Made by a program: the position numbers and the translations under genes. A stretch of DNA of 64,000 bases, from positions 83,835 through 147,834 of the forward strand of contig JBAZJV010000001.1 of NCBI GenBank assembly GCA_041651095.1, in the 5' to 3' direction. Shown here in pieces: positions 1 through 52,577 of the stretch (its first letter is position 1; every line of letters begins with the position of its first letter). This stretch comes from Patescibacteria group bacterium. Lineage in GTDB: Bacteria; Patescibacteriota; Patescibacteriia; Patescibacteriales; UBA12465. Under the pieces are notes generated by a model. That model did not search any database, was not told the DNA's origin, and was given only the letters and a program-made list of their open reading frames with translations.

Positions 1-3000
1 TTAAAAAAGAAAAAGACGGGGCGCCCGGCCAACCGATTAGCGGCCTTCCTGCTCGCGCTCAGCTTCATATCCGTTTTAATTTTGCCGCTCAGGCCGGCGC
101 AAGCCCAGTTCGGCGGTTTCGTGACCGATATCGGCAATACCATGGTCAATACGGCGGCCTGGATCTGGGACAAGACCTCGACCGTTATTTGGGAGGCCAT
201 TCAAAAGGCCGGCTCTATCGCTTTCCAGCGAACCCTTTCCTCGGCTTTGAATAAGATCGCTTACGACGCCGCCAACTACATCGGTTCCGGCGGCAAAGGA
301 CAAAAACCGCTGTTTGTGACGCAAAGCTTGGGCGACTATCTGTTGCAGGCCGGCGATGAAGCGGCTGGCACTTTTATTGAGAGCTTCGTCAATAATCTGA
401 ACGCGCCGGATCAGAACATGACTTGCCAGAGGCAATATGATTCTGATGTCGAGACCTGTTCCGACGTATTTTTTGACGACGCGACCAGCTACCGTTATTG
501 CATTACCCAGGCCGATATAGCGGCGACAGAGTGCGCGTCCAAGAACGCCAATTCCAGCAATGTCGGCAACGTCACGCCGTCTTTTAACGTCTGCAGCCCG
601 TCCTCGATAGAAGCGAAGATCAGGATCGGCTTGGGTCTGGTCGACCAGACCCGGCCGCAAGGGCCGAACTGCACGGCTTCCCAGATGATCAAGAGCTGGG
701 GCGATGATATCAACAAGAAGATCAGCGATCTCCGCGACCCTAATTATCTCAATCTCTTCACCAGTATTTTTGATCCGCGTTCCAATGACGTCGGCATCTA
801 TGTGACGGCGCGATCCGATCTTTCCAGCCAGGCTAATTTTAAGAAAGAGGTCACGCAGAGCGACTTCATCACTAATAAAGGTTTTCTGGATGTCCGCGAC
901 ATTTCTGGCGCTATCCAGGGCGTGCCCGGCGAGGCGCAGCGGGAAGCGGACGCCGCCGCCAAGGCTCGCCAAGACGCCTTAGGCAAGACGACCGGCGACA
1001 TTCTGGTCGATTCCGCCAATATTTTCTTGAATCAATTATATATCGCCGCTTTCAATAATTTATTGCAGAACCTGGCCAAGAAATCCGGCGGCAGCAGCAA
1101 CGCCATTTTAACCAATCCGGAAAGCGACCCGGGCGCCAGCCAGGGAACGACCGCCGTGAAACAGCTGACCACTTCGTTATTACAGCCGAAATTCGGTGTT
1201 CGCGCCGATTATGATATTTTGTCCTCCTTGGCGATTTGTCCGGACCCGAAGAATCCCGGACCGGACAACTGCGTAATGGACGACAAGTTCATGCAAGCGA
1301 TTACCGAAAAGAAGACGGTAGCGGAAGCGATCCGCGAAGGATATCTGCACGGCGACTGGCAGATTACGGCCGATAGCACCGGCGACAGCTATAATCGCAG
1401 CTATGCTTTGCGCAATCTCTTAATTTTGCGCAAATACCGGATCTTGCCGGCCGGCTGGGAAGCGGCCGCCCAGCAGCTTATTGCCGACCCGGAACATCCG
1501 AAGAAAGCGACGCTTAACGATCTGGTCTCCTGTTTCGACCGCAATGACCAATATAATTCTTTCAGCGCCGATTTCTTGCCGGATCGCGCCTGGTGCGAAG
1601 GCTTGGTCGACCCGAACTGGGTTCTGAAGGCGCCTTTGAATTATTGCAAGAAAGAAGGAGTCGGCGCCCAGATCATCGATCTGAACGTCATCGGCGGATA
1701 CGGCATGTCTTCCAGCACCTTGAGCATCACCCGGGCGGACGGTTACTGTGCCGACAACCAGACCTGCATCAAGGAGAAGAGCGACGGCAGCTGCGAAGCT
1801 TATGGCTACTGCACAGGCGAAAAACGGACCTGGGCCTTTGATTCCGAGGCCTGCGAGCCGATCAATAATACTTGTCAGTCTTTTTCCGACGCGTCCGGTC
1901 GCCGCTTTTCTTATCTGAAGAATACGCTTGATTATGCCGGCTGCAATTCCAATAACGCCGGTTGTCGGCAATATGCTTTGGTTGGCGCTTTTGCCACTTC
2001 CACTCAGACCGTGGCTTGGAGCGGCGGCGCCGTCCGTTACTTCAATAAGACTCTCGGTGTTTGCTCTAATGCTGAAGAAGGTTGTACGGCCTTACTTCGC
2101 CTCAAGCCGACCTGGGGCGCCAACCTGGTCATGAATTCGAATTTTGGCAACGATCAGATTGGCGACAGCGCCGTCAGCGGCCGACTTAATGATTGGCCGG
2201 TGTACGGCCAGGGGCTGATTGTTGACGGCAGCCAGGAGCCGGGCGGCACGAGCGGCAAAGTCTTGCAACTTTCCGCTTCATCCGGCGTGGCCGGCCTCTA
2301 TTCCGATGCCGGACACTCGCTGCTACCGGCCAATTTCCAGATTATCGCCGGCCAGTCCTATACGGTGAGCGCCGATGTTTATTTGGCGGCTCATGACGCG
2401 TCTGGCGCCGGGGTCAAATTGAATATTGGGAGCGGCGAGAATATGATTTCCGCCGGCACGACGGCGTTAAACCGCTGGCAGCACCTGACCGTGACCATGC
2501 CGGCGGGCAATTCCTATAATGAGCCGGCTTTTAGCCTGACGGCCGGCGCCGGAGCGATTTTCTATGTCCAGAACCTAAAATTCGAGATGAGCGATTGGGA
2601 GACCGCTTATACCACTTACGGCGCGGCTAAATTCTACGAGCGATTATTGCCGCCATATCTGGAGAAAGCCTGTTATGTTAATGCGACGGGTGGGACCAAG
2701 GACTATAATCTGCGTGCGGACGCGCCGGCGATTTGCGGCAACTATGCCCGCAAGTGCAATCGGGAAGAAGTCGGTTGCGAATTATATACCTCGGTCTCCG
2801 ATCGGTTCTCGGTCGGAGCCAAGACTACGAGCGCCGATTATTGTCAGGCCGAATGTCTGGGTTACGATGTTTATGTTGCCAAAGCCAGCTATTTCAATAT
2901 TGCGACAGCGGACAAGCTGATTCCGGCCAAAGCTACGGACTGTCGGGCGTCGGCGGCCGGCTGCAATGAATTCACTAATTTGGACGCCCTGAACCAGGGC

Positions 3001-6000
3001 GGGGAACAGAAGGAGTACTATACGCAGTTGAAGCAATGCATTAAGCCGGACACCAACAGTTGCGCCAATTTTTATTCCTGGGAAGGGACGGCTAGCGGTT
3101 ATCAGCTCAAGGCCTATAGCCTGAAAAAGAGCGGCAATGAGCCGGCCGTCACCGCCCCGGAAGTAACCGGCGATGGAGACGCTTTATGCGACGCCGCCAT
3201 TTACCATCTGCCGGCCAGCGATCCGCGCTATAATCCGGATTGCCGGGAATTCTATAACGCCGCCGGCCAGGTCTCCTATCATCTCAATTCCCGGACCTAT
3301 ACTTGTTCCGACGATTGCCATACTTACCGGATGACGGCGAAGAACGCTGGCAATGTCTGCCTGAATGGCGGCACCTGGGACGCGGTGTCCGGCGCTTGTA
3401 TCTATAAAGCTATTCCGGGAGAAGGGCAGATCTGTCGAGCCGAAGAAAACGGCTGCCGCGAATATAATGGCAATAATGGCAGCAATGTCCGACTTTTAGC
3501 TTCTTATGACTTTGAAAACGGCGCTGGCGGCTGGTTTTCACCGGTCGGCGGCGCCCTGCAGATTACCAATATCGCTAACAATAAGGACGGGCATTCATTA
3601 CTGATACCTGCTCATGTTCCGATCGAGCTGCCGGTCAGCCGCCTGGTGCGTTCCGGTTCGGCCTATACCATTAAATTCCTGGCCCGCTCGGGAGTCGATA
3701 CTGATCTGCGCGTCTATTTCCAGAACCCCAATACCAGTGCCAGCACTGATTTCTCCACCATTACGGTCAAGGGCGGCAACGAATGGCGCATCTATCAGGC
3801 TAATCTGCCCGCCTTGGATCACGCGGTCGGCCAGCCGAACGCCAGCTATCCGAACGGCGAAGTAATGTTCGTGGGCAGCGACAACGGCGATCTTTATCTT
3901 GATAATTTCATTCTATCGGAGATCGTTGACCGCTATTATCTGATCCAGGGCTCCAGCCAAGTGCCCGATGCCTGTTATTATGATAATCAGAACCGGTATC
4001 AAGGCGCTGACTTTAATCTCGGTTGCGCCCAATATACCGATCGCAACAACCTGAAGCATAATCTGCACCGTTTTACCCAACTCTGTTCCGATTCGGCGGT
4101 CGGATGCGAGCAGATGATCGATACCAAGAATTATTCTCCCTATGGTGCCGGTTTCTGGGAGAAGGGAGTCGCCACGTCCAGCTGCGATACCGCCAACAAT
4201 CCGGATTGCGTCAAAGTAGAGGGCGATAGCGCGATCTATGCCGTTTATGACCAGACCAAGCTCTGTACGGCCGCCAACCAGGGCTGCAGCCGTTTAGGCG
4301 AAGGGCAGGGCGGTGCTAATTTTACCGGCTGGTCAGATGTTTTCAAGAACAATAACCCTGATAATTATGATACAGCCCTTTGCAGCCAGGCTAATGTCGG
4401 TTGCGAAGCCTGGCAGAGCGAGGACGACAACACAACCAGCTATTTCAAGAACCCCGGTTCGGCGGTCTGCGCTTATCGGACCAGCACCAATCCCGGCGTT
4501 ATCGGCAAGCGCTGGTTCAAGGTGCCGGTCAAGCGTTGCGATGTTAACGGCAACGGCGCGATAGATATCGCCACGGAAGGGAAAGGGATAATTTGCTCCA
4601 GCGACAGCAATTGCGGCAGCCGCAAATGCCTGATCGATAATAACGACTATGAATGCCCGGTCACCTATACTAAGACCATCGGGTTCGGCGGTGCCGGCGG
4701 TCAGATCCCGACGCCGCTGGGCAATGCCGGCCAATGCACCGCGGCCGCTTCCGGCTGCACGGAATATATCGACCCGGTAACCAAGTTTGCCCAGAATCTG
4801 GTAGAAAATCCCGGCTATGAAACCGTTTTCGGCAATCTGGACGGCTGGGGGGCGGCGGCGAAACAGAAATGGAACGGCGCCGTACCGGGCATCGGCCAGC
4901 AGGCCGTCAAATTAGAACCCTATAAATTATATAGCGCGGTGGCTATTAATGCTTCGGAGGCCAGTCCGGTGAGCCTGAACTTCCTGCATGTCGCTAGTCG
5001 TTTGGGGGATGATAACCTCTTAGCCGCGGCGACCAGCACCTTCGTGCTCGCTAATAGCCAGCCGGTGATTTTCGATGCCTTGAATAATTCGGCCGTTCTC
5101 ATCACCGGCGGCGCCCTCGGCAAGACTATCAGCCTTAAAGAACTGGCGGTTGATTATCAATTAAAGAAGAATATTGACAAGAGCGGCTGCCAGGGACAGA
5201 CCAAATTCGATAACGGCTGCATCCTGTTCAATGAGCGGGCAGTCAACGGCGCCGCTCCGGTCAGCTTGAACAGCGACGCTTATGCCACGCCGGACGGATC
5301 TACGCCGGTGCTCTGCAGCCAGACCGGCTCCTGCACGGCTAACCAGCTTATAAAGGTGCGGCCGGATCGGGTCTGCGCTCGTTGGTTGGACTGCGTCAGC
5401 TATACCAAGGATCCGGACACCCAGAAGAAGACCTGTTATGCTTTCGGCGAATGCGACCGCCTGGACGATAAGGGCGAATGTGCCGATTTCCTCAACCCCA
5501 ACCCCTCTCCTTTCGCCTTGAATCCAAAAACGGACCAGAACGCAAGCGGCTATTCTCTGGCCGGCCATTACGATCTCAGCGACATGGTTCTGGCCGGGCG
5601 CAGCTTGGATCAGGATTTCCGTTATGATTTTGAAAGCGGCCAGACTCGTCCCGACCAATGTTCCGGCGCCCTGACTACCAATTGTGTCATTGATAATCCT
5701 GATTTGGCCGGCAGTTTTGGTACGGATTATCCGGCCCATGGGTTGTCCTATCTGAAAGTCGGCTCCACCGATTATCCTTTAGCGCAGAATATCGTTGCCA
5801 AACCGGCTTCCAGCACGGACGAATACTTCATCAGCTATCTGGTCAATACCAAGGATTCCGGTGGCTCTTTCGCGACTATTACCTTTACCGATCAGAACGG
5901 TTCGGTTATCAAGGCTACTTCCAGCGCGCCGACCGGCTGGCAAAGAAAGGTGCAAAAATTAAATTTCGGTTTGGGCAAGAAGATCATGACAGTCGCTTTA

Positions 6001-7887
6001 TCGTCAACCTCCAATACCGCCCCCGGTCCGGTCTATTTTGACGATATCAGCATCGCGCCGGTCTTGAAAATGTCGGGCGGAGACGATATTGCCGCGCCGG
6101 AATGCCGGTTGTATCCGTCGACGACTAGTCTGACTTGCGAGAACCGGAACCAGAACGTAGTGTCCGACGGCCTGGAAGGCTACTGCTTGCAATATGATCC
6201 GGCTAATCCCAAAGTCTGCTTGCTCTGGTATCCGATGGATAATATCCCCTTGCCGTCCCGTTCGGTCCTGGGCTATGACGGCAATTTCCCCTTGAATTTC
6301 TGTACGGCGGTAAGCGGCAACTTCGCGCTGGTGGAGAAGCGGGTAGGGTATCATTTGAAAGGGTTTCCCTCTAATGAATGGCGTTTATGCGGCGAGAACG
6401 GAGAGACCCATCCATATGATGATGGCACCAATGATGAATGTACTAATTTTGGCCGTGCTTATACTGGTAGTTGCGGTAGTGGCGGCGAATATTATTGTCC
6501 GGCCGATTATGACCTTTTGGTCTCCGTTAAGAAAGGGGACGGCGGCGCTTCCCAGGGCCATTTCAACCTGATGTGCGTGCCTAAGAAGGATAAATTATTG
6601 ATAGTGACAAATTCCCAGGCTACTTCCGAACAATCAGCCAATGGCGGCAACTGGGAAACTTGCCAGATGAATAAGCAAGGCTCTTATCATGTTGAAGGCT
6701 ACGGCGTCCATAACGGCTTCCAGGGCTGCGAAGGCGCGGGCGGCGGTGTTTCCGGCTGTAATTATCCGCAGCCGAGTTTGCGGATATATGATTATAGTAA
6801 AGATTATAGTCAATTTGCCTCTTCAGAGGCGGAAGCTAAATTGGGCGTTATCCCCGGCTTAAACTCAGGCGCGGCCGCCGATGCTAGTTATTTTCATTTC
6901 AATTGTACGAACCTAATCCAGGCCGTGGAGGCTACCGGTGCTAATAATGCCTGGGTGCAGCGCAATAAGGCTGATTCCGGATTTGTCTTAAAGTCGTCGC
7001 TTTTTGTTTCCGATTACGGTCAGGCTCTCGCTAGCCCGCCTTTCGGCGCCGCTAGCATCGGCCGCAATGTCGGTGATGGTGTGCTTCCTTTGCGTGACCG
7101 GGCGCTTCCTTCGGCCGATCCTTATGCCGGGCGACCCTATGGTTGCGTAAACGGCAGCGGTACTGATTCCGCTCAGAATTGCAAGCTGATCGGCGTCTGT
7201 TCGAACGATGCCAATACTTATTGTCTGGCCACTTCCACTGCCAGTCTTTCAACGGCAACCTGTAAAGGCGGCACTTGCCAGGCGCTTTGGAAGCCGGGTA
7301 GCGGTTATTTCAATGACATCGGCTTGGTCAAAAATACGGCCAAGAATATCCTGAAATACATTTTTCTCAGCGCCAAGAACTCCTTGGTCCTAGATAGCGC
7401 CAGCAATCAGGATAAGCCGACATATACTCTGGATCCGGACGCCAACTTTGATTTTAGCAGGACCGGCAGTACGCCCATAACGAAATTATGTAACGACACC
7501 GGCTTGGGGCCGCGAAAAGAGCCCACTTATCAGGATAATGATCCCAGTTTCTGCGCCATTTTACCGAAGTTGACTAATGTCAGGCTATATTTCAACGACA
7601 GTCAGATTGGCTCCGACACTAATCCTTACATCATCGAACAGAAAGGGATTTACCGCTTGGAATTGAACAGCGAAATAGATGATGAGCAGCAGCCGCTCAA
7701 GAGAATCACTATCGACTGGGGCGACGGCTATAGCCAGACCGTGACCAACCAGGACCATCATCCGACCGTGGGCGACCCGCATACTTTCTACCACTATTAC
7801 TATCAGACTGGTCCGAAGGAAATCCGCGTCCGGATCGTCGATAATTGGAGTTTTTACAAATGTAATTATAATTGTCAGCCTGATTAA
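1..7887 (+). CDS. Giant (>2,600 aa) secreted cysteine-rich surface protein; 5' end runs off the window
   Basis: Frame 1 is open from nt 1. Nt 1-105 encode LKKKKTGRPANRLAAFLLALSFISVLILPLRPAQA: a basic n-region, a hydrophobic core and an AQA cleavage-type site. The TTG at 82 used by the ORF track is therefore probably internal. The body holds nine C-x5-G-C-x2-[YFLMW] motifs, four jelly-roll/CBM-like modules and a C-terminal PKD-like segment (ITIDWGDGYSQT...HTFYHYY..GPKEIRVRIVDNW). Confidence 0.85.
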   Translation, partial: LKKKKTGRPANRLAAFLLALSFISVLILPLRPAQAQFGGFVTDIGNTMVNTAAWIWDKTSTVIWEAIQKAGSIAFQRTLSSALNKIAYDAANYIGSGGKGQKPLFVTQSLGDYLLQAGDEAAGTFIESFVNNLNAPDQNMTCQRQYDSDVETCSDVFFDDATSYRYCITQADIAATECASKNANSSNVGNVTPSFNVCSPSSIEAKIRIGLGLVDQTRPQGPNCTASQMIKSWGDDINKKISDLRDPNYLNLFTSIFDPRSNDVGIYVTARSDLSSQANFKKEVTQSDFITNKGFLDVRDISGAIQGVPGEAQREADAAAKARQDALGKTTGDILVDSANIFLNQLYIAAFNNLLQNLAKKSGGSSNAILTNPESDPGASQGTTAVKQLTTSLLQPKFGVRADYDILSSLAICPDPKNPGPDNCVMDDKFMQAITEKKTVAEAIREGYLHGDWQITADSTGDSYNRSYALRNLLILRKYRILPAGWEAAAQQLIADPEHPKKATLNDLVSCFDRNDQYNSFSADFLPDRAWCEGLVDPNWVLKAPLNYCKKEGVGAQIIDLNVIGGYGMSSSTLSITRADGYCADNQTCIKEKSDGSCEAYGYCTGEKRTWAFDSEACEPINNTCQSFSDASGRRFSYLKNTLDYAGCNSNNAGCRQYALVGAFATSTQTVAWSGGAVRYFNKTLGVCSNAEEGCTALLRLKPTWGANLVMNSNFGNDQIGDSAVSGRLNDWPVYGQGLIVDGSQEPGGTSGKVLQLSASSGVAGLYSDAGHSLLPANFQIIAGQSYTVSADVYLAAHDASGAGVKLNIGSGENMISAGTTALNRWQHLTVTMPAGNSYNEPAFSLTAGAGAIFYVQNLKFEMSDWETAYTTYGAAKFYERLLPPYLEKACYVNATGGTKDYNLRADAPAICGNYARKCNREEVGCELYTSVSDRFSVGAKTTSADYCQAECLGYDVYVAKASYFNIATADKLIPAKATDCRASAAGCNEFTNLDALNQGGEQKEYYTQLKQCIKPDTNSCANFYSWEGTASGYQLKAYSLKKSGNEPAVTAPEVTGDGDALCDAAIYHLPASDPRYNPDCREFYNAAGQVSYHLNSRTYTCSDDCHTYRMTAKNAGNVCLNGGTWDAVSGACIYKAIPGEGQICRAEENGCREYNGNNGSNVRLLASYDFENGAGGWFSPVGGALQITNIANNKDGHSLLIPAHVPIELPVSRLVRSGSAYTIKFLARSGVDTDLRVYFQNPNTSASTDFSTITVKGGNEWRIYQANLPALDHAVGQPNASYPNGEVMFVGSDNGDLYLDNFILSEIVDRYYLIQGSSQVPDACYYDNQNRYQGADFNLGCAQYTDRNNLKHNLHRFTQLCSDSAVGCEQMIDTKNYSPYGAGFWEKGVATSSCDTANNPDCVKVEGDSAIYAVYDQTKLCTAANQGCSRLGEGQGGANFTGWSDVFKNNNPDNYDTALCSQANVGCEAWQSEDDNTTSYFKNPGSAVCAYRTSTNPGVIGKRWFKVPVKRCDVNGNGAIDIATEGKGIICSSDSNCGSRKCLIDNNDYECPVTYTKTIGFGGAGGQIPTPLGNAGQCTAAASGCTEYIDPVTKFAQNLVENPGYETVFGNLDGWGAAAKQKWNGAVPGIGQQAVKLEPYKLYSAVAINASEASPVSLNFLHVASRLGDDNLLAAATSTFVLANSQPVIFDALNNSAVLITGGALGKTISLKELAVDYQLKKNIDKSGCQGQTKFDNGCILFNERAVNGAAPVSLNSDAYATPDGSTPVLCSQTGSCTANQLIKVRPDRVCARWLDCVSYTKDPDTQKKTCYAFGECDRLDDKGECADFLNPNPSPFALNPKTDQNASGYSLAGHYDLSDMVLAGRSLDQDFRYDFESGQTRPDQCSGALTTNCVIDNPDLAGSFGTDYPAHGLSYLKVGSTDYPLAQNIVAKPASSTDEYFISYLVNTKDSGGSFATITFTDQNGSVIKATSSAPTGWQRKVQKLNFGLGKKIMTVALSSTSNTAPGPVYFDDISIAPVLKMSGGDDIAAPECRLYPSTTSLTCENRNQNVVSDGLEGYCLQYDPANPKVCLLWYPMDNIPLPSRSVLGYDGNFPLNFCTAVSGNFALVEKRVGYHLKGFPSNEWRLCGENGETHPYDDGTNDECTNFGRAYTGSCGSGGEYYCPADYDLLVSVKKGDGGASQGHFNLMCVPKKDKLLIVTNSQATSEQSANGGNWETCQMNKQGSYHVEGYGVHNGFQGCEGAGGGVSGCNYPQPSLRIYDYSKDYSQFASSEAEAKLGVIPGLNSGAAADASYFHFNCTNLIQAVEATGANNAWVQRNKADSGFVLKSSLFVSDYGQALASPPFGAASIGRNVGDGVLPLRDRALPSADPYAGRPYGCVNGSGTDSAQNCKLIGVCSNDANTYCLATSTASLSTATCKGGTCQALWKPGSGYFNDIGLVKNTAKNILKYIFLSAKNSLVLDSASNQDKPTYTLDPDANFDFSRTGSTPITKLCNDTGLGPRKEPTYQDNDPSFCAILPKLTNVRLYFNDSQIGSDTNPYIIEQKGIYRLELNSEIDDEQQPLKRITIDWGDGYSQTVTNQDHHPTVGDPHTFYHYYYQTGPKEIRVRIVDNWSFYKCNYNCQPD

Positions 7888-7917: not shown

Positions 7918-8544
7918 ATGAGCGTAGACTACCGGCTCCTCAATCAGAATAACAATGCCGAACGGGCCGCGGATCGGGCCGGTAATTTGCGAGCGGCGCA
8001 GCGCGGCTCAGATTCTGACGCTAGCGGTGATATGGGAGCTAGCGGCGAGGCGGAACAGCCGCGCAGCCTGAGAGAAATGGTTTTGGCCCGGAAACGGGAG
8101 TTGGCGTTGGCAGAGGCTAAAGGAGAGGCAGCCGGCGGTTTAGCCGGCGCCGCTACCGCGCCGGTGCGGCGAGGAACCTCGAAATTGTTGCAGCAGTCTT
8201 GGCTGAACCTGATCGATAGTTTCGGTTTGACCCTGATTTGGATAAACATCCATGTTTTTCTGAAAATGGTCGTTGGTGAAAAATTCTTTTGCAAGCTGGG
8301 TGAGGAATGGGCCTCGCTGGTGCCCGGTGGCGAAGCAGATCCGTTGGCGAAGGAGGCCGCTGCTAAATTTGGTAAGCCTATCGGCACAGTTGAGGCGATA
8401 GCACTGGCTCTTTGCGACCTAATCCTGCTCTTATTGATTCTCGCCATCATCAGTCTAGTTGCCATGATTGTCGGAGTAATGGAGAATCCCCTAAAAGCCA
8501 TAATGGCTTTATTGAAAACTATTACTGGCTCTATGTGGGAGTAA
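7918..8544 (+). CDS. Small membrane protein with a disordered N-terminus and two C-terminal TM helices; possibly a T4SS pilin-like component
   Basis: ORF of 208 aa. Hydrophobic segments are LTLIWINIHVFLKMVV and ALALCDLILLLLILAIISLVAMIVGV. It lies immediately upstream of a VirB6/TrbL-like gene. The functional call rests on context only. Confidence 0.45.
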   Translation: MSVDYRLLNQNNNAERAADRAGNLRAAQRGSDSDASGDMGASGEAEQPRSLREMVLARKRELALAEAKGEAAGGLAGAATAPVRRGTSKLLQQSWLNLIDSFGLTLIWINIHVFLKMVVGEKFFCKLGEEWASLVPGGEADPLAKEAAAKFGKPIGTVEAIALALCDLILLLLILAIISLVAMIVGVMENPLKAIMALLKTITGSMWE

Positions 8545-8568: not shown

Positions 8569-11487
8569 ATGTTTCTAGAATCTATGAAATCATCAAGCCG
8601 AAACAGAATATTAATGTGCACCTTTAGCTTCCTAGTGGCGATCGGCATCTTTTTGATTGGTCGGCCGGCGCTGGCTGACTGGCCGACTGAAATCATGTCC
8701 GGCCTGCTTAGTATTTTCATCTGGGCGCTGGGCGTTATTCTTGGGCTAGTCTTACAAGTCCTTATATTAATTGCCGGCTACCAGGATTTTATTAACTCCC
8801 AGGCAGTAGTTTTGGGCTGGGTGATAGTACGCGACATCTGCAACATGTTCTTTGTGATTGTTTTAATGATTATTGCTTTTGGCACGATTTTACACTTAGA
8901 GAACTATAGCTATAAGAAATGGTTGCCCAAACTGATTTTGATGGCCGTCCTGATTAACTTTTCCAAGACGATTTGCGGCATCTTGATTGATATCACCCAG
9001 GTGGCGATGCTCACTTTCGTTAATGCTTTTAAGGATATCGGTGGTGGCAACGCTACCGAGATGTTGGGTATCGCCAAAATTGTTACTTTATCACAAACCA
9101 GTAATGATACCGGTTTTTTCACGGTTGTCGGCGCCTATATTTTGGGCATGATTTATCTGATTGTGTCGATCATCGTCATTGTGGCAATGATGATGATGCT
9201 GGTGATGCGTCTGGTTATGATCTGGATTTACGTTGTTTTGTCGCCTGCCGCTTATTTGTTATCCGCCTTTCCGGGCGGTCAAAAATATGCTTCGCAGTGG
9301 TGGTCGGAATTCATTAAAAATTTAATTGTCGGACCGGTATTAGCTTTTTTCATCTGGCTATCGCTAGCTTCTCTCGGAGCGACCAGCCCTAGTTTTGATA
9401 CTACGGCGGCAGATAAAAATCTTGCCGATTATAATACGCAGATTACTACTAGTGCGCAAAGCGCTAAATTAACCACGGGCGGAGAGCAGTCTGATGCCGC
9501 AACAGCCGGGACGGAAGCCTCTAAACCTAGTGTGCTTATTAAGTTCATTATCGCCATCGGCATGCTCTTAGGCGGTATGATGGTGACCCAGCAGATCGGC
9601 GGCGCGGCCGGCAGCATGGCCGGCAAAGTCTTTGAGAAGGGGAAGGGCCTGAGCCTTAAGGGGGCTAAAGGCCTGGGTAAATGGGCTGGCCGGCGTTTAG
9701 CGGACGTGCGCGATATCGCCAGCGAGAAAGCCGGCGTAGATTTGAATTTAGCTGCGGTCTGGCGGAGGCGTAACGAGCAATCAGAGGCTAACCGTCAGCT
9801 GCGCTTGATGCATATCCGGAAGAATACTTTGGCCACGGCCGCTGGCGATAAGAATGCTGAAGGCCAGCGCCCCGGTTGGCTGCATCGCAAGCTGGCCTTG
9901 GCCAGCACGGGAGACGTCGCCTGGCAGAACATCGTGGATAAGAAATTTGGGGTGCTGACGGCAGGTGATGTAAATGTGGCTGAACAAGCCATGACAGATA
10001 TCAAGAAAGTGGAGGACGATAAGAATAAAGCTGGTGAAAATATTGAAAGTATCCGCGGCGAATCCGAGCGGACCATTACCCAAGCGGAGCACGTCGACAA
10101 TGTCCAGAAAGCCAAAAATCTTCGGACGGCCAATCAAGAATTGGCAGATAGAAAGAAAGAAATTACCGACTCCGCTGATTATAAGACGTTGAAAGAAAAA
10201 GAAGACAAATATCAGATTACCGATTCAGAGCAGAAGTCGCTGGATAAATATAAAGAACAGATCAAGAAGATAGATGAAAAAACGGCAACTAATGAAGAAG
10301 ATATCGAGCGCTTAGATCCGGGCGCCATTACTTTCGATCAGGTTCAGGCTAATCGGGCCAATATTAATAGTCTCGAGCTGGATAATGCCGCGCTGGAAGA
10401 TAAGAAACAGAAGTTTATCGAGAAGGAATCATATCAGAATTTGCTGCGCGAAGAAAGTAGCGGCCAGATTAGCCCGGCCAATCAAGCATTGCTAGATACG
10501 CAGAGGAACTATGTTAAAAGTTTAGATGACCGGATTAAGGTTAATAACGAGAAAAAAGACAAACTGAGCAAGACGACGGTAGTCGTAAAGGATGAGGCGG
10601 CTAAGAAAGAAGCCCAAAATTCGTTCAAACGGGAAATTATCAGCCAAGAGAATAACATTAAGCAATATGATAAGCAATTGGACGGACTCAATAAGGCTCT
10701 GCGCCATAATCAATTGTCGGAACTGTCTACGGCCCGCGGCCATGTTGACGCGCAGGCGGAAGGAGAAGCAGCTAAAAAAATCGCCACTTTCGTTAATCCG
10801 GACCAATTAGTCGGTATCTTTAAGGAAGCAGTAGAGTCTAAAGATCAGGCTTTGATGGCCGCGGTGTACAAAAAATTAGCTAAGACCGCAAATTATAACG
10901 AATTGCACAAAGCCTTAAATATCGGCACCGGTTATGATGGCATGATCGAGATGTCTAAGCGGCTACAGACCAAAGAGGGGGGCGGTATGAATGAACAAGA
11001 TGCTAGGGGTCTAGTGGCGGAAGTCGGCGAAATCTGCAAAGGCATCGGTCATATGGAAGCTTTTGCTTCCATGAGTATGAATAAAGCTGGCCAGTGGGAG
11101 GAGACCGGCAAAGATCAACAGGAGGCAGCCATTCTTAGTGAGAAATCCAAGATTCAGGTTCAGCAATTTGTTCGTAACATCAATCGCCTAGGTGCGGGTT
11201 CTTATGAAAACGACAAGCCGCATACGGCGGATAATTGGACTTTAAGCCGATCGACCCTGGCCTTATTTGCGGCTAAGGACGCTAAATACGCTGATGAAAT
11301 GAGCAAAACCGGTAATATCAATACTATCCAGTTTATTGGCAGCAATCCCAAGAACCTTCAAGCCTTGAAAGACGCTGGCGCCAAGGAAGTGGCTAAAGTC
11401 ATTGAAGATGTCATGAGGAAGGCTAGGGTTACCAGCGCTAACGTAGCGAAGCCTCTGGACTCTATCCGGGCTGTCAGCCGGTCTTAA
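8569..11487 (+). CDS. Polytopic membrane protein, putative VirB6/TrbL-like T4SS component with a long Lys/Glu-rich coiled-coil tail
   Basis: The N-terminal ~340 aa contain at least 6 predicted TM helices (e.g. GILIDITQVAMLTFVNAF, MIYLIVSIIVIVAMMMMLVMRLVMIWIYVVL), typical of VirB6/TrbL topology. The C-terminal ~550 aa are charged and coiled-coil-like. Confidence 0.55.
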   Translation: MFLESMKSSSRNRILMCTFSFLVAIGIFLIGRPALADWPTEIMSGLLSIFIWALGVILGLVLQVLILIAGYQDFINSQAVVLGWVIVRDICNMFFVIVLMIIAFGTILHLENYSYKKWLPKLILMAVLINFSKTICGILIDITQVAMLTFVNAFKDIGGGNATEMLGIAKIVTLSQTSNDTGFFTVVGAYILGMIYLIVSIIVIVAMMMMLVMRLVMIWIYVVLSPAAYLLSAFPGGQKYASQWWSEFIKNLIVGPVLAFFIWLSLASLGATSPSFDTTAADKNLADYNTQITTSAQSAKLTTGGEQSDAATAGTEASKPSVLIKFIIAIGMLLGGMMVTQQIGGAAGSMAGKVFEKGKGLSLKGAKGLGKWAGRRLADVRDIASEKAGVDLNLAAVWRRRNEQSEANRQLRLMHIRKNTLATAAGDKNAEGQRPGWLHRKLALASTGDVAWQNIVDKKFGVLTAGDVNVAEQAMTDIKKVEDDKNKAGENIESIRGESERTITQAEHVDNVQKAKNLRTANQELADRKKEITDSADYKTLKEKEDKYQITDSEQKSLDKYKEQIKKIDEKTATNEEDIERLDPGAITFDQVQANRANINSLELDNAALEDKKQKFIEKESYQNLLREESSGQISPANQALLDTQRNYVKSLDDRIKVNNEKKDKLSKTTVVVKDEAAKKEAQNSFKREIISQENNIKQYDKQLDGLNKALRHNQLSELSTARGHVDAQAEGEAAKKIATFVNPDQLVGIFKEAVESKDQALMAAVYKKLAKTANYNELHKALNIGTGYDGMIEMSKRLQTKEGGGMNEQDARGLVAEVGEICKGIGHMEAFASMSMNKAGQWEETGKDQQEAAILSEKSKIQVQQFVRNINRLGAGSYENDKPHTADNWTLSRSTLALFAAKDAKYADEMSKTGNINTIQFIGSNPKNLQALKDAGAKEVAKVIEDVMRKARVTSANVAKPLDSIRAVSRS

Positions 11488-11496: not shown

Positions 11497-12459
11497 ATGC
11501 CTACTCTTACAACCGAATTACTACAACAGGAAATAGACTATGTGCTGGCTAACGACGATTGGCAGGGCGCTTTTGAGGCGTATTCGATTACTCGCGACTG
11601 GCTGGCGGCTAATAAGACCTTGAAAAGTAATTCTCGGGAATATGCCCAGTACCAGAATCTGCTGATGAAATTGAAATTCCTTAGCCTGAATTATTTCGAC
11701 GACGTTCAGGATTATTATGATTTACTGAAGAATTATTTGCCGTTAGCTCTGGAAATGCCGGATTATGATCTGTGGGGCCGCTTATCAGCCCAATTGACCT
11801 ATCTGCCGTTAATCGAGTCGCGCGATACTTTCAAGGCCAAACTGCGCGAAGCCTTAGAACACTCCGACAGCCTCCTGCTCAACCGGCAGAAGTATCCGCA
11901 GGAAGGCATGCCGTATAAAGTCGGCGATTGGATTAAGGATTTTGTGGCTAACCTTGGTTTGGATAATTTTGATAAGTTGAAGAAAGTGGAATATCTGGAG
12001 CACGGCAAATATATCAAATTGCTAAAACCGGAGGATAAGGAAAAAATCAAAGTCCTGCTGAACGTTTATGAGAATCTTAAATTATCTTCCCGGACGCCAG
12101 TCGGCTATGACAACGCGGTGGCGATGAATATTGACGGCAAGCAGATCATTTTTGATCATGGGCAAGCGGAAGAAGTATTACCGACCCTTTTAGAGGATAT
12201 TAAGAAGCTCTCAGGCGAGGCACCCGCCGCCCTGGCGCCGGCTGCCGCCCCGGCCGCCCCGGCAGTTGCTGTCCGTCCGTCTAGCCAGTCCGCAGCGCCG
12301 GCCTCAGCGCCCGCCGATCCGATTGCTGAATTAGAAAAACTGTTGGCCGAATATCCGTCCAGCAGCCTGGAGCATAAAGCGATCAAGCAGGAAATCAACC
12401 GTTTGAAAGTCGCCGCGTTCAAAGCGGCTCAACAGTCCAAAACCAATGTCAAGAAATAA
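11497..12459 (+). CDS. Hypothetical protein with an Ala/Pro-rich linker
   Basis: Intact 320-aa ORF, 9 nt after the preceding gene. No motif recognised. Low-complexity stretch APAALAPAAAPAAPAVAVRP. Confidence 0.65.
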   Translation: MPTLTTELLQQEIDYVLANDDWQGAFEAYSITRDWLAANKTLKSNSREYAQYQNLLMKLKFLSLNYFDDVQDYYDLLKNYLPLALEMPDYDLWGRLSAQLTYLPLIESRDTFKAKLREALEHSDSLLLNRQKYPQEGMPYKVGDWIKDFVANLGLDNFDKLKKVEYLEHGKYIKLLKPEDKEKIKVLLNVYENLKLSSRTPVGYDNAVAMNIDGKQIIFDHGQAEEVLPTLLEDIKKLSGEAPAALAPAAAPAAPAVAVRPSSQSAAPASAPADPIAELEKLLAEYPSSSLEHKAIKQEINRLKVAAFKAAQQSKTNVKK

Positions 12460-33704: not shown

Positions 33705-34643
33705 ATGTTCATCAAATTTTTCAAGGACATTACTAAAAAGAGCGTAGGAGAAGCTGGCGGCAAGGGCGCTTCGCTCGGAGAGATGACCAATGCCAAGATT
33801 CCGGTACCGCCTGGTTTCGTGATTTTAGCCGAGGCTTTCTATCAATTCTTGGCGGAAACGGATCTGACCCAGGCCATCCAGGCGGTGCTAGATAAGATCA
33901 ACTATAAGGATATCAACGCGGTAGACGGCGCTTCCGCGGAGATTCGCTCTTTGATCATGAAAGCGCCGATGCCCAAAGATTTGGAGAAGCTGATCAAGGC
34001 TGATTTTAAAAAACTAAAAGCCAAATTCGTCGCGGTCCGCTCCAGCGCCACAGCGGAAGATTCTTCCTCCGCTTCCTGGGCCGGGGAATTGGAAACCTAC
34101 TTGAATACGACGGATAAGACCTTGCTGTTAAACGTAAAGAAATGCTGGTCTTCGCTGTTTACGCCGCGGGCTATTTTCTACCGCCATGAGAAAAAATTAT
34201 TAAAGACCAAAGTCGGCGTGGCGGTCGTGGTGCAGCAAATGGTGGAGTCGGAAATCTCCGGCATTGCTTTTACTGTCCATCCGGTCACCCAGGACAAGAA
34301 CCAGATGATCATCGAAGCCGGCTACGGCCTGGGCGAAGCCATCGTCTCCGGTTCAATCACGCCAGACTCCTATGTCCTGGACAAAAGGGATTATTCTTTC
34401 ATCGATATCAATGTCGCCGGCCAGGAACGCCAAATCATCAAAGGGCCGTCCGGCGGCACGAAATGGGTGGCGGTTCCGGCGGCCCGCCGGGAAAAACAGA
34501 AGCTCAGCGGCCAACAGATCGTCGGATTGGCGAAGATCTGCGCCGGAATAGAGAAGCACTATAAGTTCCCCTGTGATATCGAATGGGCTCTGGCCAAGGG
34601 CAAATTCTATATCACTCAGAGCCGGCCGATAACTACGCTCTGA
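33705..34643 (+). CDS. Stand-alone PPDK_N-type ATP-grasp (nucleotide-binding) domain protein of the PEP synthase/PPDK/RPH family
   Basis: SVGEAGGKGASLGEMTNAKIPVPPGFVI, FVAVRSSATAEDSSSASWAGE and VAVVVQQMVESEISGIAFTVHP. It is 312 aa and ends where full-length enzymes continue into further domains. Confidence 0.9.
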   Translation: MFIKFFKDITKKSVGEAGGKGASLGEMTNAKIPVPPGFVILAEAFYQFLAETDLTQAIQAVLDKINYKDINAVDGASAEIRSLIMKAPMPKDLEKLIKADFKKLKAKFVAVRSSATAEDSSSASWAGELETYLNTTDKTLLLNVKKCWSSLFTPRAIFYRHEKKLLKTKVGVAVVVQQMVESEISGIAFTVHPVTQDKNQMIIEAGYGLGEAIVSGSITPDSYVLDKRDYSFIDINVAGQERQIIKGPSGGTKWVAVPAARREKQKLSGQQIVGLAKICAGIEKHYKFPCDIEWALAKGKFYITQSRPITTL

Positions 34644-34766: not shown

Positions 34767-36296
34767 ATGTTTGATTACTTACAAAAATTTAATAGTCTGC
34801 CCAAGGAACTGCGCGACCGGATTTCCGCGCCGGCCGTCATGGCGGCGGTGACGGAATTGGAGGATAAGTACCAGGTCGATCTGGCCATGACTGTCATGAA
34901 AGTGATGATCCGCAGCCTGACCGTTAAGGAATTGCCGGTTTTTTTTGTCAGTGAGGCGGGCTTGCCGCAGAATGCGGCGGAAAACCTGACCCGCGAACTG
35001 AAAGAGCGGGTTTTTGCTGTCGTGGCTGATTACCTGGGCCTGCAGTCGGAAATGCGCGCTCTGGATTTGGAACGGGATATCAGCGGCCTGATCAAAGAAG
35101 CCGGCTTATCTTTGGCCAGCGATAATCTGGTCAGCCGTTTGAAGAATATTCTGGCGACTTATCTGCGCGGCGTACGCAACAAGATCGATACCAGGAACGC
35201 TTTGGCTAAGGATGTGAAAATCGGCGGCCTTAACTTGAGCGCCGCGGAAATCGACCGTCTTTTAAAAATCTGCGATAGCGGCAAATTAAGCGCCGTTTCT
35301 CCGGTTTCTGCCGCGGCCTCGGCGTCCGCTCACCCCAAGCCGGCCGTTTTCGCTTTGCCGCCGGAAGAGTACGATCTTAAGCAGGCTTTAGCCAGTGGCC
35401 AGGTAAAACCTGTCGTGAAGCCCGCTCCGAGCCAGGCCCAACCGTCGCCGCTGCAACCTGCCGTCGGCTTAGATACCAGCCACGAGATCAGCGCGCCGGA
35501 TCGCCAGCTGGATCTGGCCGCGCCAACAAAACCCGTGGCGCCAGTTAACTTACCTATTCCGCCAACCGTCCCGTCGTTGTCCGACAAGCCGACCGTCGCG
35601 CCCTCTTCGCCGGTCGTCATCCAGCCGACCCAGACGGTTCAGACAGTCCAGCCGATCAAGCCGGAACCGGTCAAGAAGATCGAATTAGTCCATGCGCCTA
35701 AGAATATCCAGGCTATCACGAATATTCAGGTAAATACTCAGTCTAAGGTCCAAACTAAGGCCGGCTCTCCGGTTGCCAGCCGTTTGGCGCCTCTTTCGGC
35801 GACGCCGCCGGGGACGCCGGGCGTCCCGCCCCAGTCTTCGGCAGCAGCCTCGCCGACTATCGCCGCTGCCGCCCAGGCCGCGGCGCCAGCGCGGCCGACC
35901 CCGGCCCGTCGTCCGGTAGTGGCGCCTCCTTCCGCCCGGCCGCGGATGCATGATATCAGGCCGGTACCCAAGGTCATGGGGCCGATAGAAGAATTGCAAT
36001 TCTTGGATCCGGTCAATTTCCGCCGCTTGGGTCAGGCGCCGGCGGAAGCGACCGCCAAGATTTTTGCGAAGATAAAACTTTTGGAAAAAGACGGCTATGA
36101 TAAGATGATCGCCGGCGTCCGGGCCTGGCGCCAGAGTCCGGTCAACCGGCTGTACTTGCGCATCGGCCAGGAAGCGATCGCCGGCGGGCTGTTATTGAAA
36201 GACGCTGTTTCAGCCCGACAGCAGGCCGGCCAGGAAACTCTGAGCATGGAAGAGATTGAGGCCGTAGTCAAGCTGAACAGCAAGCTGGTATTCTAA
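34767..36296 (+). CDS. Hypothetical protein with a long Pro/Ala/Val-rich central region
   Basis: Intact 509-aa ORF. No catalytic motif recognised. Confidence 0.65.
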   Translation: MFDYLQKFNSLPKELRDRISAPAVMAAVTELEDKYQVDLAMTVMKVMIRSLTVKELPVFFVSEAGLPQNAAENLTRELKERVFAVVADYLGLQSEMRALDLERDISGLIKEAGLSLASDNLVSRLKNILATYLRGVRNKIDTRNALAKDVKIGGLNLSAAEIDRLLKICDSGKLSAVSPVSAAASASAHPKPAVFALPPEEYDLKQALASGQVKPVVKPAPSQAQPSPLQPAVGLDTSHEISAPDRQLDLAAPTKPVAPVNLPIPPTVPSLSDKPTVAPSSPVVIQPTQTVQTVQPIKPEPVKKIELVHAPKNIQAITNIQVNTQSKVQTKAGSPVASRLAPLSATPPGTPGVPPQSSAAASPTIAAAAQAAAPARPTPARRPVVAPPSARPRMHDIRPVPKVMGPIEELQFLDPVNFRRLGQAPAEATAKIFAKIKLLEKDGYDKMIAGVRAWRQSPVNRLYLRIGQEAIAGGLLLKDAVSARQQAGQETLSMEEIEAVVKLNSKLVF

Positions 36297-36298
36297 AT

Positions 36299-36718
36299 AT
36301 GCAACAATTTACCGTTCCCCAATTCATCGACGTGGAAAACCAGATCATCGGTCCGATCACGACCCGGCAGTTTATGATCCTCCTGGTCGCGGCGGTAGCT
36401 ATCGGCCTCAGTTACAAGCTGTTTGATTTCAGCTTGTTCGCGACGGTAGCTATTTTGATCCTCATCATCGCCGCCACCCTGGCTTTCGTCAAGATTAACG
36501 GCCGCCCCTTCCACCTGTTCATCCTGAATACTATCCAGACTTGGCGTCGGCCGGGTTTGCGGGTCTGGAACAATCAGGCGCTCATCAGCGAGCAGTCGGA
36601 CAAGGAACCGGTCGTGTTGCCGGTATATCGTCCGACGCCGCCGAAAATTTATAAAAAATCGCGTTTAGCCGAACTGGCCCTGATCGTCGATACCAAGGGC
36701 CGGTATAAAGGAGAATGA
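36299..36718 (+). CDS. PrgI-like (VirB3-like) small T4SS membrane protein
   Basis: The N-terminus VPQFIDVENQIIGPITTRQFMILLVAAVAIGLSY is followed by a second TM helix. 139 aa. It lies directly upstream of the VirB4-like ATPase genes. Confidence 0.55.
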   Translation: MQQFTVPQFIDVENQIIGPITTRQFMILLVAAVAIGLSYKLFDFSLFATVAILILIIAATLAFVKINGRPFHLFILNTIQTWRRPGLRVWNNQALISEQSDKEPVVLPVYRPTPPKIYKKSRLAELALIVDTKGRYKGE

Positions 36719-36719
36719 T

Positions 36720-37400
36720 ATGGCCGGAAGGAATTTAGCCAAAAACAAGATCGGGGCCTTTACCCAGCAATATCTGAATATTGCCGAGATTAAGGGCAAC
36801 ACGGTAGTCATGAAAGACGGCACCCTGCGCGCCGTGCTCTTGGTTTCCAGCATCAATTTTGCCTTGAAGAGCGAAGACGAGCAGAACGCGGTCATTGACT
36901 CCTATATCCGTTTCCTGAACAATATCAGCTTTACGGTCCAGATCGTTATCCAGTCGCGCGAGTTGAACATCGACAATTACCTGCAATACCTGAAAGGGAA
37001 GGAGAAGGAACAGACCAACAAGCTGCTTAAGGTCCAGACGGCCGACTATATCGAATATATCAAGGAGCTCACTTCGTTGGGTAAGATCATGAATAAGCGC
37101 TTTTACGTCGTCGTCCCCTACGATCCCTTGACTGACAAGCATAAAGGCTTCTTTTCTCTGCTGGGCGAAGCGATGCGGCCGGCGACCATCATCAAGCTGA
37201 AAGAGAAAACTTTCCAAAAATACCAGGAGATGCTGGAGCGCCGGGTGGAAAGCGTGATGGGCGGGCTGGAATCTATGGGTGTTGCGGTGGCGCGCCTGGA
37301 TACGCAGAGCCTCATTGAATTATATTACAAGACTTATAATCCGGAGACCTCCGTCAATCAGGAACTCGCGGATTTGGATAAGATCCGCGTAGAACAATAA
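36720..37400 (+). CDS. T4SS-associated protein resembling the N-terminal region of Gram-positive-type VirB4/TraE ATPases
   Basis: FTQQYLNIAEIKGNTVVMKDGTLRAVLLVSSINFALKSEDEQNAVIDSYIRFLNNISFTVQIVIQS matches the pattern I associate with VirB4 N-termini. It starts 1 nt after the PrgI-like stop and ends 7 nt before the VirB4-like ATG, in a different frame. Confidence 0.5.
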   Translation: MAGRNLAKNKIGAFTQQYLNIAEIKGNTVVMKDGTLRAVLLVSSINFALKSEDEQNAVIDSYIRFLNNISFTVQIVIQSRELNIDNYLQYLKGKEKEQTNKLLKVQTADYIEYIKELTSLGKIMNKRFYVVVPYDPLTDKHKGFFSLLGEAMRPATIIKLKEKTFQKYQEMLERRVESVMGGLESMGVAVARLDTQSLIELYYKTYNPETSVNQELADLDKIRVEQ

Positions 37401-37407
37401 AGCCTCT

Positions 37408-45221: not shown

Positions 45222-45315
45222 GGAGAGGTGGCTGAGTGGCTGAAAGCGGCAGGTTGCTAACCTGTTATAGGGTGTTAAAGCCCTATCGAGGGTTCGAATC
45301 CCTCCTTCTCCGCCA
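45222..45315 (+). tRNA. tRNA-Ser (anticodon GCU), CCA encoded
   Basis: Acceptor stem GGAGAGG/CTTCTCC, 3-bp D stem GCT/AGC, anticodon arm GCAGG-TTGCTAA-CCTGT, long variable arm TAGGG..CCCTA, T arm GAGGG-TTCGAAT-CCCTC, then G-CCA. Confidence 0.9.
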
Positions 45316-45390
45316 GGACAATTTAGTATCGGATAGACCCATTTAATATAGAGAAATGAGCGACCCGAGTGGTTCGAATCCCATTGTCCT
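45316..45390 (+). pseudogene. Degenerate tRNA-like element, either a pseudo-tRNA or an att remnant
   Basis: A perfect 7-bp acceptor-type pairing joins GGACAAT (45316-45322) and ATTGTCC (45383-45389). CGAGTGGTTCGAATCCC copies the tRNA-Ser T-arm (CGAGGGTTCGAATCCC) with a 1-nt insertion. The D and T stems do not pair, and the anticodon-like stem CATTT/AAATG closes a 9-nt loop. Confidence 0.35.
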
Positions 45391-45475
45391 TGTCAAAAAG
45401 GCGTTCTTTAAAAAGGACGTTTTTTTGTATAATTTTGGATAAGGTGTATAATATAATCAATATATTTTAGTAAAA

Positions 45476-45679: not shown

Positions 45680-45685
45680 AAACAT

Positions 45686-47272: not shown

Positions 47273-47282
47273 AAAAGAAGGT

Positions 47283-48293: not shown

Positions 48294-48294
48294 T

Positions 48295-52534: not shown

Positions 52535-52544
52535 TTTTATTATA

Positions 52545-52577
52545 AAAGCGTCAACGATATTATGTTGGCGTTTTTTT
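52545..52577. terminator. Intrinsic terminator shared by hsdR (+) and the recombinase gene (-)
   Basis: AAAA, CGTCAAC (52549-52555), 8-nt loop, GTTGGCG (52564-52570, one G-U pair), then T7. Confidence 0.55.

Follow-up and report, generated by a model that had tools for sequence, protein, structure and literature searches.

A giant cysteine-rich exported protein with CBM-like modules, encoded next to type IV secretion genes, as a candidate contact protein of Patescibacteria

Patescibacteria account for much of the diversity of bacteria and are believed to live in attachment to other microbes, and the molecules that make this contact are known for only a minority of lineages. Here we analysed a stretch of 64,000 nucleotides from a Patescibacteria group bacterium (contig JBAZJV010000001.1, positions 83,835 to 147,834; referred to as the window), which opens with the gene of a very large cysteine-rich protein, called the giant protein below. 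The type IV secretion systems (T4SS) of Patescibacteria have been described as widespread, distinct, related to the MPF-FATA type and mostly devoid of a relaxase, and in the same survey 'no adhesins, such as PrgB, were detected' (Quinonero-Coronel et al. 2025, PMC12102498). Epibiotic growth of Southlakia epibionticum, a cultured saccharibacterium and the only genetically tractable species, strictly requires the T4SS and several adhesins (PMC10633639). Large Cys-rich exported proteins with a proposed role in attachment have been described in Peribacteria (Anantharaman et al. 2016, PMC4736985). Large Cys-rich surface proteins from the Candidate Phyla Radiation (CPR) that carry lectin modules resembling carbohydrate-binding modules (CBMs) and act as adhesins of a T4SS locus are, as a kind, known in outline. 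The association of the giant family with the patescibacterial T4SS locus appears to be unreported, as no description of the family or of this link was found in the limited collection of papers that was searched.

The giant protein is in our view best explained as a core component that Falkowbacteria-type Patescibacteria (class ABY1) have conserved. As to its function, we tentatively propose, giving the idea slightly less than an even chance, that it is a disulfide-stapled, glycan-binding contact or adhesion protein that works together with the patescibacterial T4SS. The gene product is a Sec-exported, very large protein with invariant cysteines. Its reading frame (frame 1) is open from the first nucleotide of the window to a stop codon at 7885-7887, and the matching NCBI protein P0001 (2,634 aa) consists of MSSFLG followed by the window translation, to which it is otherwise identical. 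This places the ATG 18 nt 5′ of the window, with six N-terminal codons outside, as expected in the original prediction of an upstream start and a signal-peptide-like N-terminus. The full-length protein keeps this signal peptide. Nucleotides 1-105 encode KKKK..RLAAFLLALSFISVLILPLRPAQA, with a Lys-rich n-region, a hydrophobic core and AQA followed by Q, and both the K-rich n-region and the AxA-Q cleavage site are kept in the family consensus. In a Kyte-Doolittle scan the signal peptide was the sole hydrophobic segment of the protein.

The giant protein belongs to a lineage-wide family that is conserved over its full length, a point that the original prediction had overlooked. A word-indexed search returned at least 279 relatives, the best 120 of which are full-length (2.1-2.9 thousand aa) and 39-69% identical to the window protein. 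These 120 are unnamed or annotated as 'hypothetical', and the labelled ones belong to Patescibacteria or Candidatus Falkowbacteria. P0001 itself is listed as 'hypothetical protein WC453_00400, Patescibacteria group bacterium', and one family member carries the UniRef name 'CBM-cenC domain-containing protein'. A profile search with aa 36-707 gave 1,374 clusters (50% identity) at E up to 1e-3 and 1,085 at E up to 1e-30, and most of the top 150 cluster representatives are 2.4-3.0 thousand aa long. When one genome per GTDB species was scanned, 431 loci with a relative were found, the named ones mostly from Candidatus Falkowbacteria. The family is without a curated model, and its public sequences are present only as hypothetical proteins. 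The window protein matched no Pfam family at E up to 1 and no PHROGs family; in NCBIfam only choice_anch_J was found (E 0.012, inside module 2), and the full-length profile gave two sub-threshold CBM matches among PDB sequences. In many records of metagenome-assembled genomes that contain the giant locus (L008, L011, L013 and others, as well as L026 and L065) the title reads 'uncultured Gammaproteobacteria bacterium', 'Bacillota bacterium' or 'Saccharimonadales'; these are probably placeholder or wrong taxonomic labels.

The protein carries a recurring short cysteine motif, C-x5-G-C-x2-[YFLMW]. The regular expression C.{5}GC.{2}[YFLMW] matched exactly nine times, with the same peptides at the same coordinates as had been predicted (Table 1), compared to a chance expectation of 0.06 on average and 1 at most in 2,000 shuffles of the protein. 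The motif is absent from every other open reading frame (ORF) of at least 100 aa in the window, and in 89 related loci it occurred outside the giant gene only in truncated giant copies and in two chance matches. Conservation of cysteines and motifs was determined across 120 aligned homologues. Each of the nine sites keeps its two cysteines in 100% of the sequences and its glycine in 80-100%, the 11-mer is free of insertions and deletions, and a hydrophobic or aromatic residue occupies position +10 in at least 99%. The motif had also been suggested to define an undescribed repeat family. Its regions indeed match no curated repeat model of Pfam, NCBIfam or PHROGs; what repeats, on the other hand, is a hairpin-sized element and not a self-standing domain. 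Comparison of the five Cys-rich spacers by hhalign aligned only 10-20 residues around the motif, apart from a weak double-motif unit (copies 1+2, 3+4 and 6+7; E about 0.002), and a long repeat domain was consequently dropped. Because the spacers are alike only over such short stretches and match no curated family, the motif is better regarded as an undescribed, family-specific structural staple than as an independent repeat domain.

The nine motifs are part of a wider pattern of closely spaced cysteines. About 20 Cys pairs of the giant protein are spaced by 6-8 residues (C-x5-7-C loops), the nine motifs forming a C-x6-C class with Gly before the second Cys, while other pairs are C-x5-C. In total 81 Cys columns are at least 90% conserved, and the number of cysteines in the mature protein is even in 115 of the 120 homologues. 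Neighbouring cysteines tend to be lost together: this was seen for 1395/1403, which lies in spacer 3 (4/4 cases), 1772/1778 (8/8), 511/532 (2/2) and 1532/1538 (1/1). The even counts and the paired losses therefore support local disulfides, and we infer such pairing for the giant protein. By analogy, each of the motifs would be closed to a hairpin by a predicted C(i)-C(i+7) bond. In line with disulfides, a DsbA-like gene stays in synteny with the giant gene, five genes upstream in relatives and at the locus in L090. The Cys-rich spacers are the best-conserved part of the protein, with a mean pairwise identity of 0.54-0.60 compared to 0.50 for the N-terminal domain, 0.37-0.45 for the β-sandwich modules and 0.37 for aa 2101-2520. 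This gradient is in keeping with a base that is conserved and a tip that varies. The Peribacteria proteins mentioned above resemble the giant protein by description, both being large, Cys-rich and equipped with a signal peptide, in genomes that encode a disulfide-forming protein. However, they are multi-copy, strain-variable and contain about 7% Cys, whereas the giant family is conserved over its full length, contains 3.5% Cys, is T4SS-linked and was recovered as one locus per contig record.

Between the spacers lie four stretches, predicted as jelly-roll-like units of about 150 aa, all of which are present at the expected positions. Their described start and end pattern holds for module 1 (NFGND..W ... 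FYVQNLKF), module 2 (DFENG..W ... LYLDNFIL) and module 4 (DFESG ... VYFDDISI), while module 3 follows it only loosely. AlphaFold2 was run on aa 571-1730 with a 46-sequence alignment and gave confident β-sandwich blocks at aa 710-865, 1160-1310 and 1600-1716, corresponding to modules 1-3, while the Cys-rich linkers of the model mostly had a predicted local distance difference test score (pLDDT) below 50. In Foldseek searches against the PDB the blocks matched CBM22, CBM4, CBM16, CBM29 and a porphyran-binding CBM with TM-scores (normalised to the target) of 0.61-0.73, among them CBM22 4xup/4xuo (0.70-0.71, root mean square deviation 3.6 Å), CBM4 1gu3 (0.63) and the porphyran-binding CBM (0.73). 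Modules 1-3 thus have CBM-like β-sandwich folds in the predicted structures. Independently of the models, Pfam CBM_4_9 was matched at module 1 of the orthologue P0008 (33.8 bits, cut-off 25.9, residues 716-850) and at module 2 of P0003 (29.6 bits, residues 1194-1293) and P0119 (29.4 bits), and CBM_4_9_1 at module 4 of P0119 (27.5 bits, cut-off 27, residues 2032-2113). The thresholds were reached at these orthologous positions only, the window protein itself giving no match at E up to 1. Module 4 is akin to modules 1 and 2 in hhalign comparisons (E 0.004-0.006) and may likewise be CBM-like, as judged from its sequence; for module 3 hhalign found no sequence relation to modules 1, 2 or 4. Taken together, the jelly-roll assignment is backed by predicted structure for modules 1-3 and by Pfam matches in orthologues for modules 1, 2 and 4.

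When compared to CBM_4_9 and CBM22 proteins (PF02018, PF22637; 4xup, 1gu3), modules 1-3 superpose as predicted β-jelly-rolls, but they are not joined to a recognisable enzyme and are embedded in a Cys-rich scaffold instead. In a viral fold library the top matches were phage tail fibres and host-specificity proteins that contain CBM-cenC domains; these are also long proteins with multiple β-sandwiches and serve to recognise glycans on cell surfaces. The global TM-scores are, however, only about 0.1 and no phage genes surround the giant gene, so the likeness is one of architecture and not of demonstrated ancestry. Elapor1 and Cry1A protoxins, which ranked at the top of the Foldseek matches, were dropped in view of TM-scores of ~0.1 and the low-confidence regions involved.

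The N-terminal domain had a mean pLDDT of 58.7 and was confident only at model residues 110-140 and 390-510. It matches no Pfam, NCBIfam or PHROG family, and the PDB matches that Foldseek returned for its model were rejected as generic helical bundles with E above 0.4 on a low-confidence model. Towards the other end of the protein, the hypervariable region shows an identity to the reference of 0.14-0.29 with 28-39% gaps, and homologues differ in its length, from 7 up to 714 aa; no Pfam match was found in it, including in homologues with long inserts. In P0091, P0119, P0115 and P0075 an extra insert of ~150 aa is present where aa 2101-2520 of the window protein align, with the pattern '..QISVDD.Y.VY.NG..IG ... 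EKNVLAI.A.D.GG..GIAAAI.G.M.TN...GWKC'. It has no Pfam match and looks by eye like a further lectin-type β-sandwich.

The protein ends in a module whose IDWGDG...PHxFYHYY...DNW core is nearly invariant in the family. A PKD-like C-terminus had been predicted from its WGDG...H.Y core; the core is present, but the PKD assignment is not established, since PKD_4 or PKD was matched below threshold in 2-3 of 31 members (E 0.04-0.17) and not at all by the window sequence. The NCBIfam model CPR_pilus_PamR matched weakly in 17 of the 31 (best E 2e-5; a 47-residue match of 15.8 bits, where the cut-off is 300), and a profile of the module gave no match among PDB sequences at E up to 5. Because of the weak PKD matches and the commoner weak matches to PamR, which is of FnIII type, an Ig/FnIII-like β-sandwich is plausible for this module. 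PamR (NF058578; bioRxiv 10.64898/2026.03.03.709456) is an RbmA-like FnIII protein of the CPR Pam pilus. Only the C-terminal ~50 residues of the giant protein match it weakly; the giant protein is without the C-terminal transmembrane helix and no pam operon was seen nearby, which suggests that the two share only an Ig/FnIII-like element.

Table 1. Features of the giant gene and of the T4SS-like genes in the window (positions are those of the 64,000-nucleotide stretch; identity is mean pairwise identity).
Feature	Position	Strand	Evidence and remarks
Signal peptide	1..105	+	MSSFLG extension in P0001, hydrophobicity, family consensus
N-terminal conserved domain (aa 36-570)	106..1710	+	Mostly long helices by AlphaFold2; identity 0.50
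Cys-rich spacer 1 (aa 571-707)	1711..2121	+	Motif copies 1-2 (CNSNNAGCRQY, 1942-1974; CSNAEEGCTAL, 2062-2094); three C-x5/6-C loops; identity 0.58; AlphaFold2 pLDDT <50
β-sandwich module 1 (aa 708-866), CBM4/9/22-like	2122..2598	+	AlphaFold2 block; Foldseek 4xup/4xuo; Pfam match in P0008
Cys-rich spacer 2 (aa 867-1163)	2599..3489	+	Motif copies 3-5 (CNREEVGCELY, 2755-2787; CRASAAGCNEF, 2941-2973; CRAEENGCREY, 3433-3465); identity 0.59, among the highest of the whole protein; AlphaFold2 confidence mostly low, moderate at aa 1020-1100
β-sandwich module 2 (aa 1164-1309), CBM4/9-like	3490..3927	+	AlphaFold2 block; Pfam match in P0003; weak profile match to CBM4 1gui (E 0.12)
Cys-rich spacer 3 (aa 1310-1599)	3928..4797	+	Motif copies 6-9 (CSDSAVGCEQM, 4084-4116; CTAANQGCSRL, 4264-4296; CSQANVGCEAW, 4381-4413; CTAAASGCTEY, 4735-4767); identity 0.57
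β-sandwich module 3 (aa 1600-1719), smaller	4798..5157	+	AlphaFold2 block at aa 1600-1716; identity 0.37
Cys-rich spacer 4 (aa 1720-1872)	5158..5616	+	C-x5-C loops 1772/1778, 1792/1798 and 1812/1818; no GC motif
β-sandwich module 4 (aa 1873-2020), CBM_4_9-like on sequence alone	5617..6060	+	Pfam match in P0119; hhalign; weak match to CBM70 4d0q (E 0.08)
Short Cys-rich spacer 5 and hypervariable region (aa 2101-2520)	6061..7560	+	Low identity, many gaps
C-terminal module of ~108 aa and stop codon	7561..7887	+	IDWGDG...PHxFYHYY...DNW core
208-aa small membrane protein	7918..8544	+	Two C-terminal hydrophobic helices; found by tblastn in 50 loci
972-aa polytopic membrane protein, N-terminal ~340 aa VirB6/TrbL_3-like	8569..11487	+	7-8 hydrophobic segments; long hydrophilic C-terminal part
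320-aa soluble protein	11497..12459	+	Follows the VirB6-like gene in L003, L004, L086, L087 and L089; no family match
Rest of the T4SS-like locus	34767..39321	+	509-aa protein; PrgI/VirB3-like 36299-36718; TraC/TrsD-like 36720-37400; VirB4 ATPase 37408-39321

The genomic context gave the most informative and the main new result: the giant gene is stably linked to the TSP3 gene, a VirB6-like gene and other T4SS genes. In relatives down to 40% identity a common gene order was found: DsbA-like, exo/endonuclease-phosphatase, LeuRS, RsmA, a ~206-aa protein, the giant protein, and proteins of ~200, ~870 and ~320 aa. The most constant neighbour is the ~206-aa TSP3 gene, which lies directly 5′ of the giant gene in 78 of 79 loci and ends 4-40 nt before it. 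In the case of the window this gene falls outside the analysed stretch and is known from relatives (L001 9376-9996; L006 about 9258-9869). Its product begins with a transmembrane anchor, behind which lie TSP3 repeats of the calcium-binding type (PF18884, E 2.7e-9 to 1.4e-13), and is a candidate partner or anchor of the giant protein. Downstream, the 208-aa protein has no family match and the 972-aa window protein no Pfam match at E up to 5. For the latter, neither a similarity to the 509-aa protein encoded upstream of PrgI nor a match to PDB sequences was found; it is, however, 45% identical (E 6e-94) to the product of L087 19153-20802, for which a precomputed match to PF19590 TrbL_3 and a sub-threshold match to PF04610 TrbL (E 0.004) were found. 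PF19590 was matched in 20 of 76 homologues of the 972-aa protein, from several CPR lineages. A VirB6-like gene lies 0.6-3.9 kb past the giant stop codon in 35 of the 41 loci with enough downstream sequence.

The PrgI, TrsD and VirB4 genes of the window lie ~27 kb past the giant stop codon (Pfam PrgI E 1.3e-8; P-loop_TraG E 4.9e-27) and are followed by radA and recG. In the more distant relatives L086, L087 and L090 all genes form a single locus, in the order TSP3, giant, small ORF, VirB6-like, ~320 aa, ~500 aa, PrgI, TrsD and VirB4. The giant protein of L090 is only 33% identical to that of the window and has six motif copies, and DsbA and RadA follow the locus there. The adjacency to T4SS-like genes that had been predicted could be confirmed through homologues only, namely by the TrbL_3 similarity of the 45%-identical protein, the PF19590 matches and the compact loci of relatives. 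Compared to the patescibacterial T4SS locus of the published survey (PMC12102498), the window shares PrgI, TrsD/TraC-like, VirB4 and VirB6-like genes, and then radA and recG as in ABY1. The survey reported neither the giant protein nor an adhesin, whereas here the giant and TSP3 genes are steady neighbours of the VirB6-like gene. We also observed that the VirB4-like function is split at 36720-39321 of the window, into a 226-aa TraC/TrsD-like protein and a 637-aa P-loop protein, and in the same way in L086, L087 and L090; this split matches the TrsD component described for Patescibacteria. In addition, proteins of 283-345 aa are encoded between the PFOR subunit genes (L003 1729-2580, L004 1322-2323, L005 1406-2443). 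Weak matches to T4SS_pilin (PF18895) were found on those of L004 and L005, and in L003 on a VanY-type peptidase (1-834) instead. VirB2-like pilin domains may thus be scattered near the region of the giant gene.

The giant protein can also be compared to the surface adhesins of Gram-positive (MPF-FATA) conjugative T4SSs, such as PrgB of pCF10. Both proteins are large, Sec-exported and encoded in a T4SS locus without a classical pilus, and a role in holding the partner is proposed for the giant protein as well, whose gene is contiguous with the VirB6-like, PrgI, TrsD and VirB4 genes in L086, L087 and L090. In contrast to PrgB, it has neither an LPXTG motif nor a C-terminal hydrophobic segment, and no homology was detected with Pfam or NCBIfam. 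Its architecture of CBM-like modules and Cys-rich spacers also differs, and its locus is chromosomal and without a relaxase.

Following the proposed function, the chain would begin, once the signal peptide is cleaved off, with a conserved helical N-terminal domain of ~530 aa, followed by a rigid scaffold. This scaffold, made of five Cys-rich spacers with about 40 mostly local disulfides, would form a stiff stalk that displays the four CBM4/9/22-type β-sandwich modules and carries the hypervariable region and the Ig/FnIII-like module at the end of the chain. The conserved N-terminal part would stay with partners in the envelope, for which the TSP3, 208-aa and VirB6-like proteins are candidates. 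Glycans on the host surface would be bound by the β-sandwich modules and by the variable region, and the two envelopes would thereby be held together for the action of the T4SS. We infer retention at the surface, glycan binding as predicted from the modules and cooperation with the T4SS. Of the disulfide-stabilised extracellular adhesin of the original prediction, export and disulfides are supported by our data, whereas the adhesin function is proposed and not established. In a more specific form, which we think unlikely, the giant protein would itself serve the ABY1 T4SS as its working part outside the cell, a single-chain disulfide-stapled stalk in place of the pilus or adhesin. The conserved helical N-terminal domain would be docked on the VirB6-like channel together with the TSP3 and 208-aa proteins, while the lectin modules and the variable tip would extend to the envelope of the host. 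If true, this would be a new structural solution for T4SS-mediated contact in monoderm episymbionts.

Several observations weigh against a contact protein that works with the T4SS. The N-terminal domain and the Cys-rich spacers were modelled with low confidence and without a structural match, and scans with Pfam and for hydrophobicity found no LPXTG, transmembrane, SLH or LysM anchor in the giant protein, which leaves its retention on the cell unexplained. The T4SS locus of the window is split by a metabolic block of ~22 kb with genes of the S-adenosylmethionine (SAM) cycle and about ten PEP-utilizer paralogues, a block that is absent in L086, L087 and L090, and in L088 no VirB6-like gene lies within 10 kb downstream. 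Moreover, these genomes are collinear over the entire neighbourhood, LeuRS, RsmA and MetK included, and part of the linkage between the giant gene and the T4SS may therefore be inherited gene order and not function. Full-length conservation as high as observed here is also unusual for an adhesin that determines host specificity. The same split locus, the situation in L088, the full-length conservation and the lineage-wide presence, together with the location among the housekeeping genes LeuRS, RsmA, MetK and AdoHcyase, would be accounted for by a general structural protein of the envelope or surface layer of these ultra-small cells, or by a lectin that scavenges glycans, acting independently of the T4SS and placed where it is by lineage collinearity. 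We consider this explanation somewhat unlikely. The block of TSP3, giant, small membrane, VirB6-like and ~320-aa genes is kept while its surroundings change (L086, L087, L089, L090), no S-layer, SLH or cell-wall-binding domain was found with Pfam, and the hypervariable distal region fits the recognition of a target better than a lattice.

Modules of the CBM_4_9 and CBM22 types typically occur as appendages of glycoside hydrolases, and about 950 aa of the giant protein, comprising the N-terminal domain and the variable region, are without an assigned fold. The protein could thus be a secreted enzyme that degrades polysaccharides or cell walls, targeted by its CBMs as in cellulases and xylanases, with a catalytic family that escaped recognition in one of these two regions. 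The reported scarcity of VirB1-type hydrolases near patescibacterial virB4 (PMC12102498) also counts in favour of an enzyme. We nevertheless judge an enzyme to be unlikely, as no catalytic family was found in Pfam, NCBIfam, PHROGs or among PDB sequences and folds, the conservation of the variable region is too poor for an active site, and the N-terminal domain is predicted to consist of long helices and not of a compact enzyme fold. The giant size, the Cys-rich scaffold and the variable C-terminal region also loosely recall polymorphic toxins, and Cry1A protoxins were among the Foldseek matches. A contact-dependent toxin, or an effector that is delivered to the host, is however very improbable: the Cry1A matches score about 0.1 and stem from the jelly-roll modules, Pfam and NCBIfam returned no toxin, immunity or pre-toxin domain, the extreme C-terminal module is conserved and not polymorphic, and the Sec signal speaks against a T4SS substrate.

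Two further regions of the window were recorded. Between 16333 and 34643 about ten tandem paralogues of 470-625 aa are encoded, each with a terminal PEP-utilizers mobile domain at its end (PF00391, E from 1e-22 to 1e-27); genes for HD, HAD and histidine-phosphatase proteins are interspersed, and a stand-alone PPDK_N (ATP-grasp) gene follows at 33705-34643. The array, which also begins in L001 and L003, looks like a split and diversified phosphotransfer system. Further downstream, at 45222-64000, the GC content drops from about 0.50 to 0.33 right after tRNA-Ser(gct) (45222-45315). This low-GC island contains the type I restriction-modification genes HsdM, HsdS and HsdR, a large serine recombinase, a terminase-large-subunit-like gene and an OLD-type AAA_15/TOPRIM nuclease, and is probably an integrated mobile element or a prophage remnant.

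With regard to the biology of Patescibacteria, the giant protein provides a concrete and testable candidate for the missing element of contact with other cells. It is at the same time a conserved scaffold of Cys hairpins that lies beyond the reach of current structure prediction.

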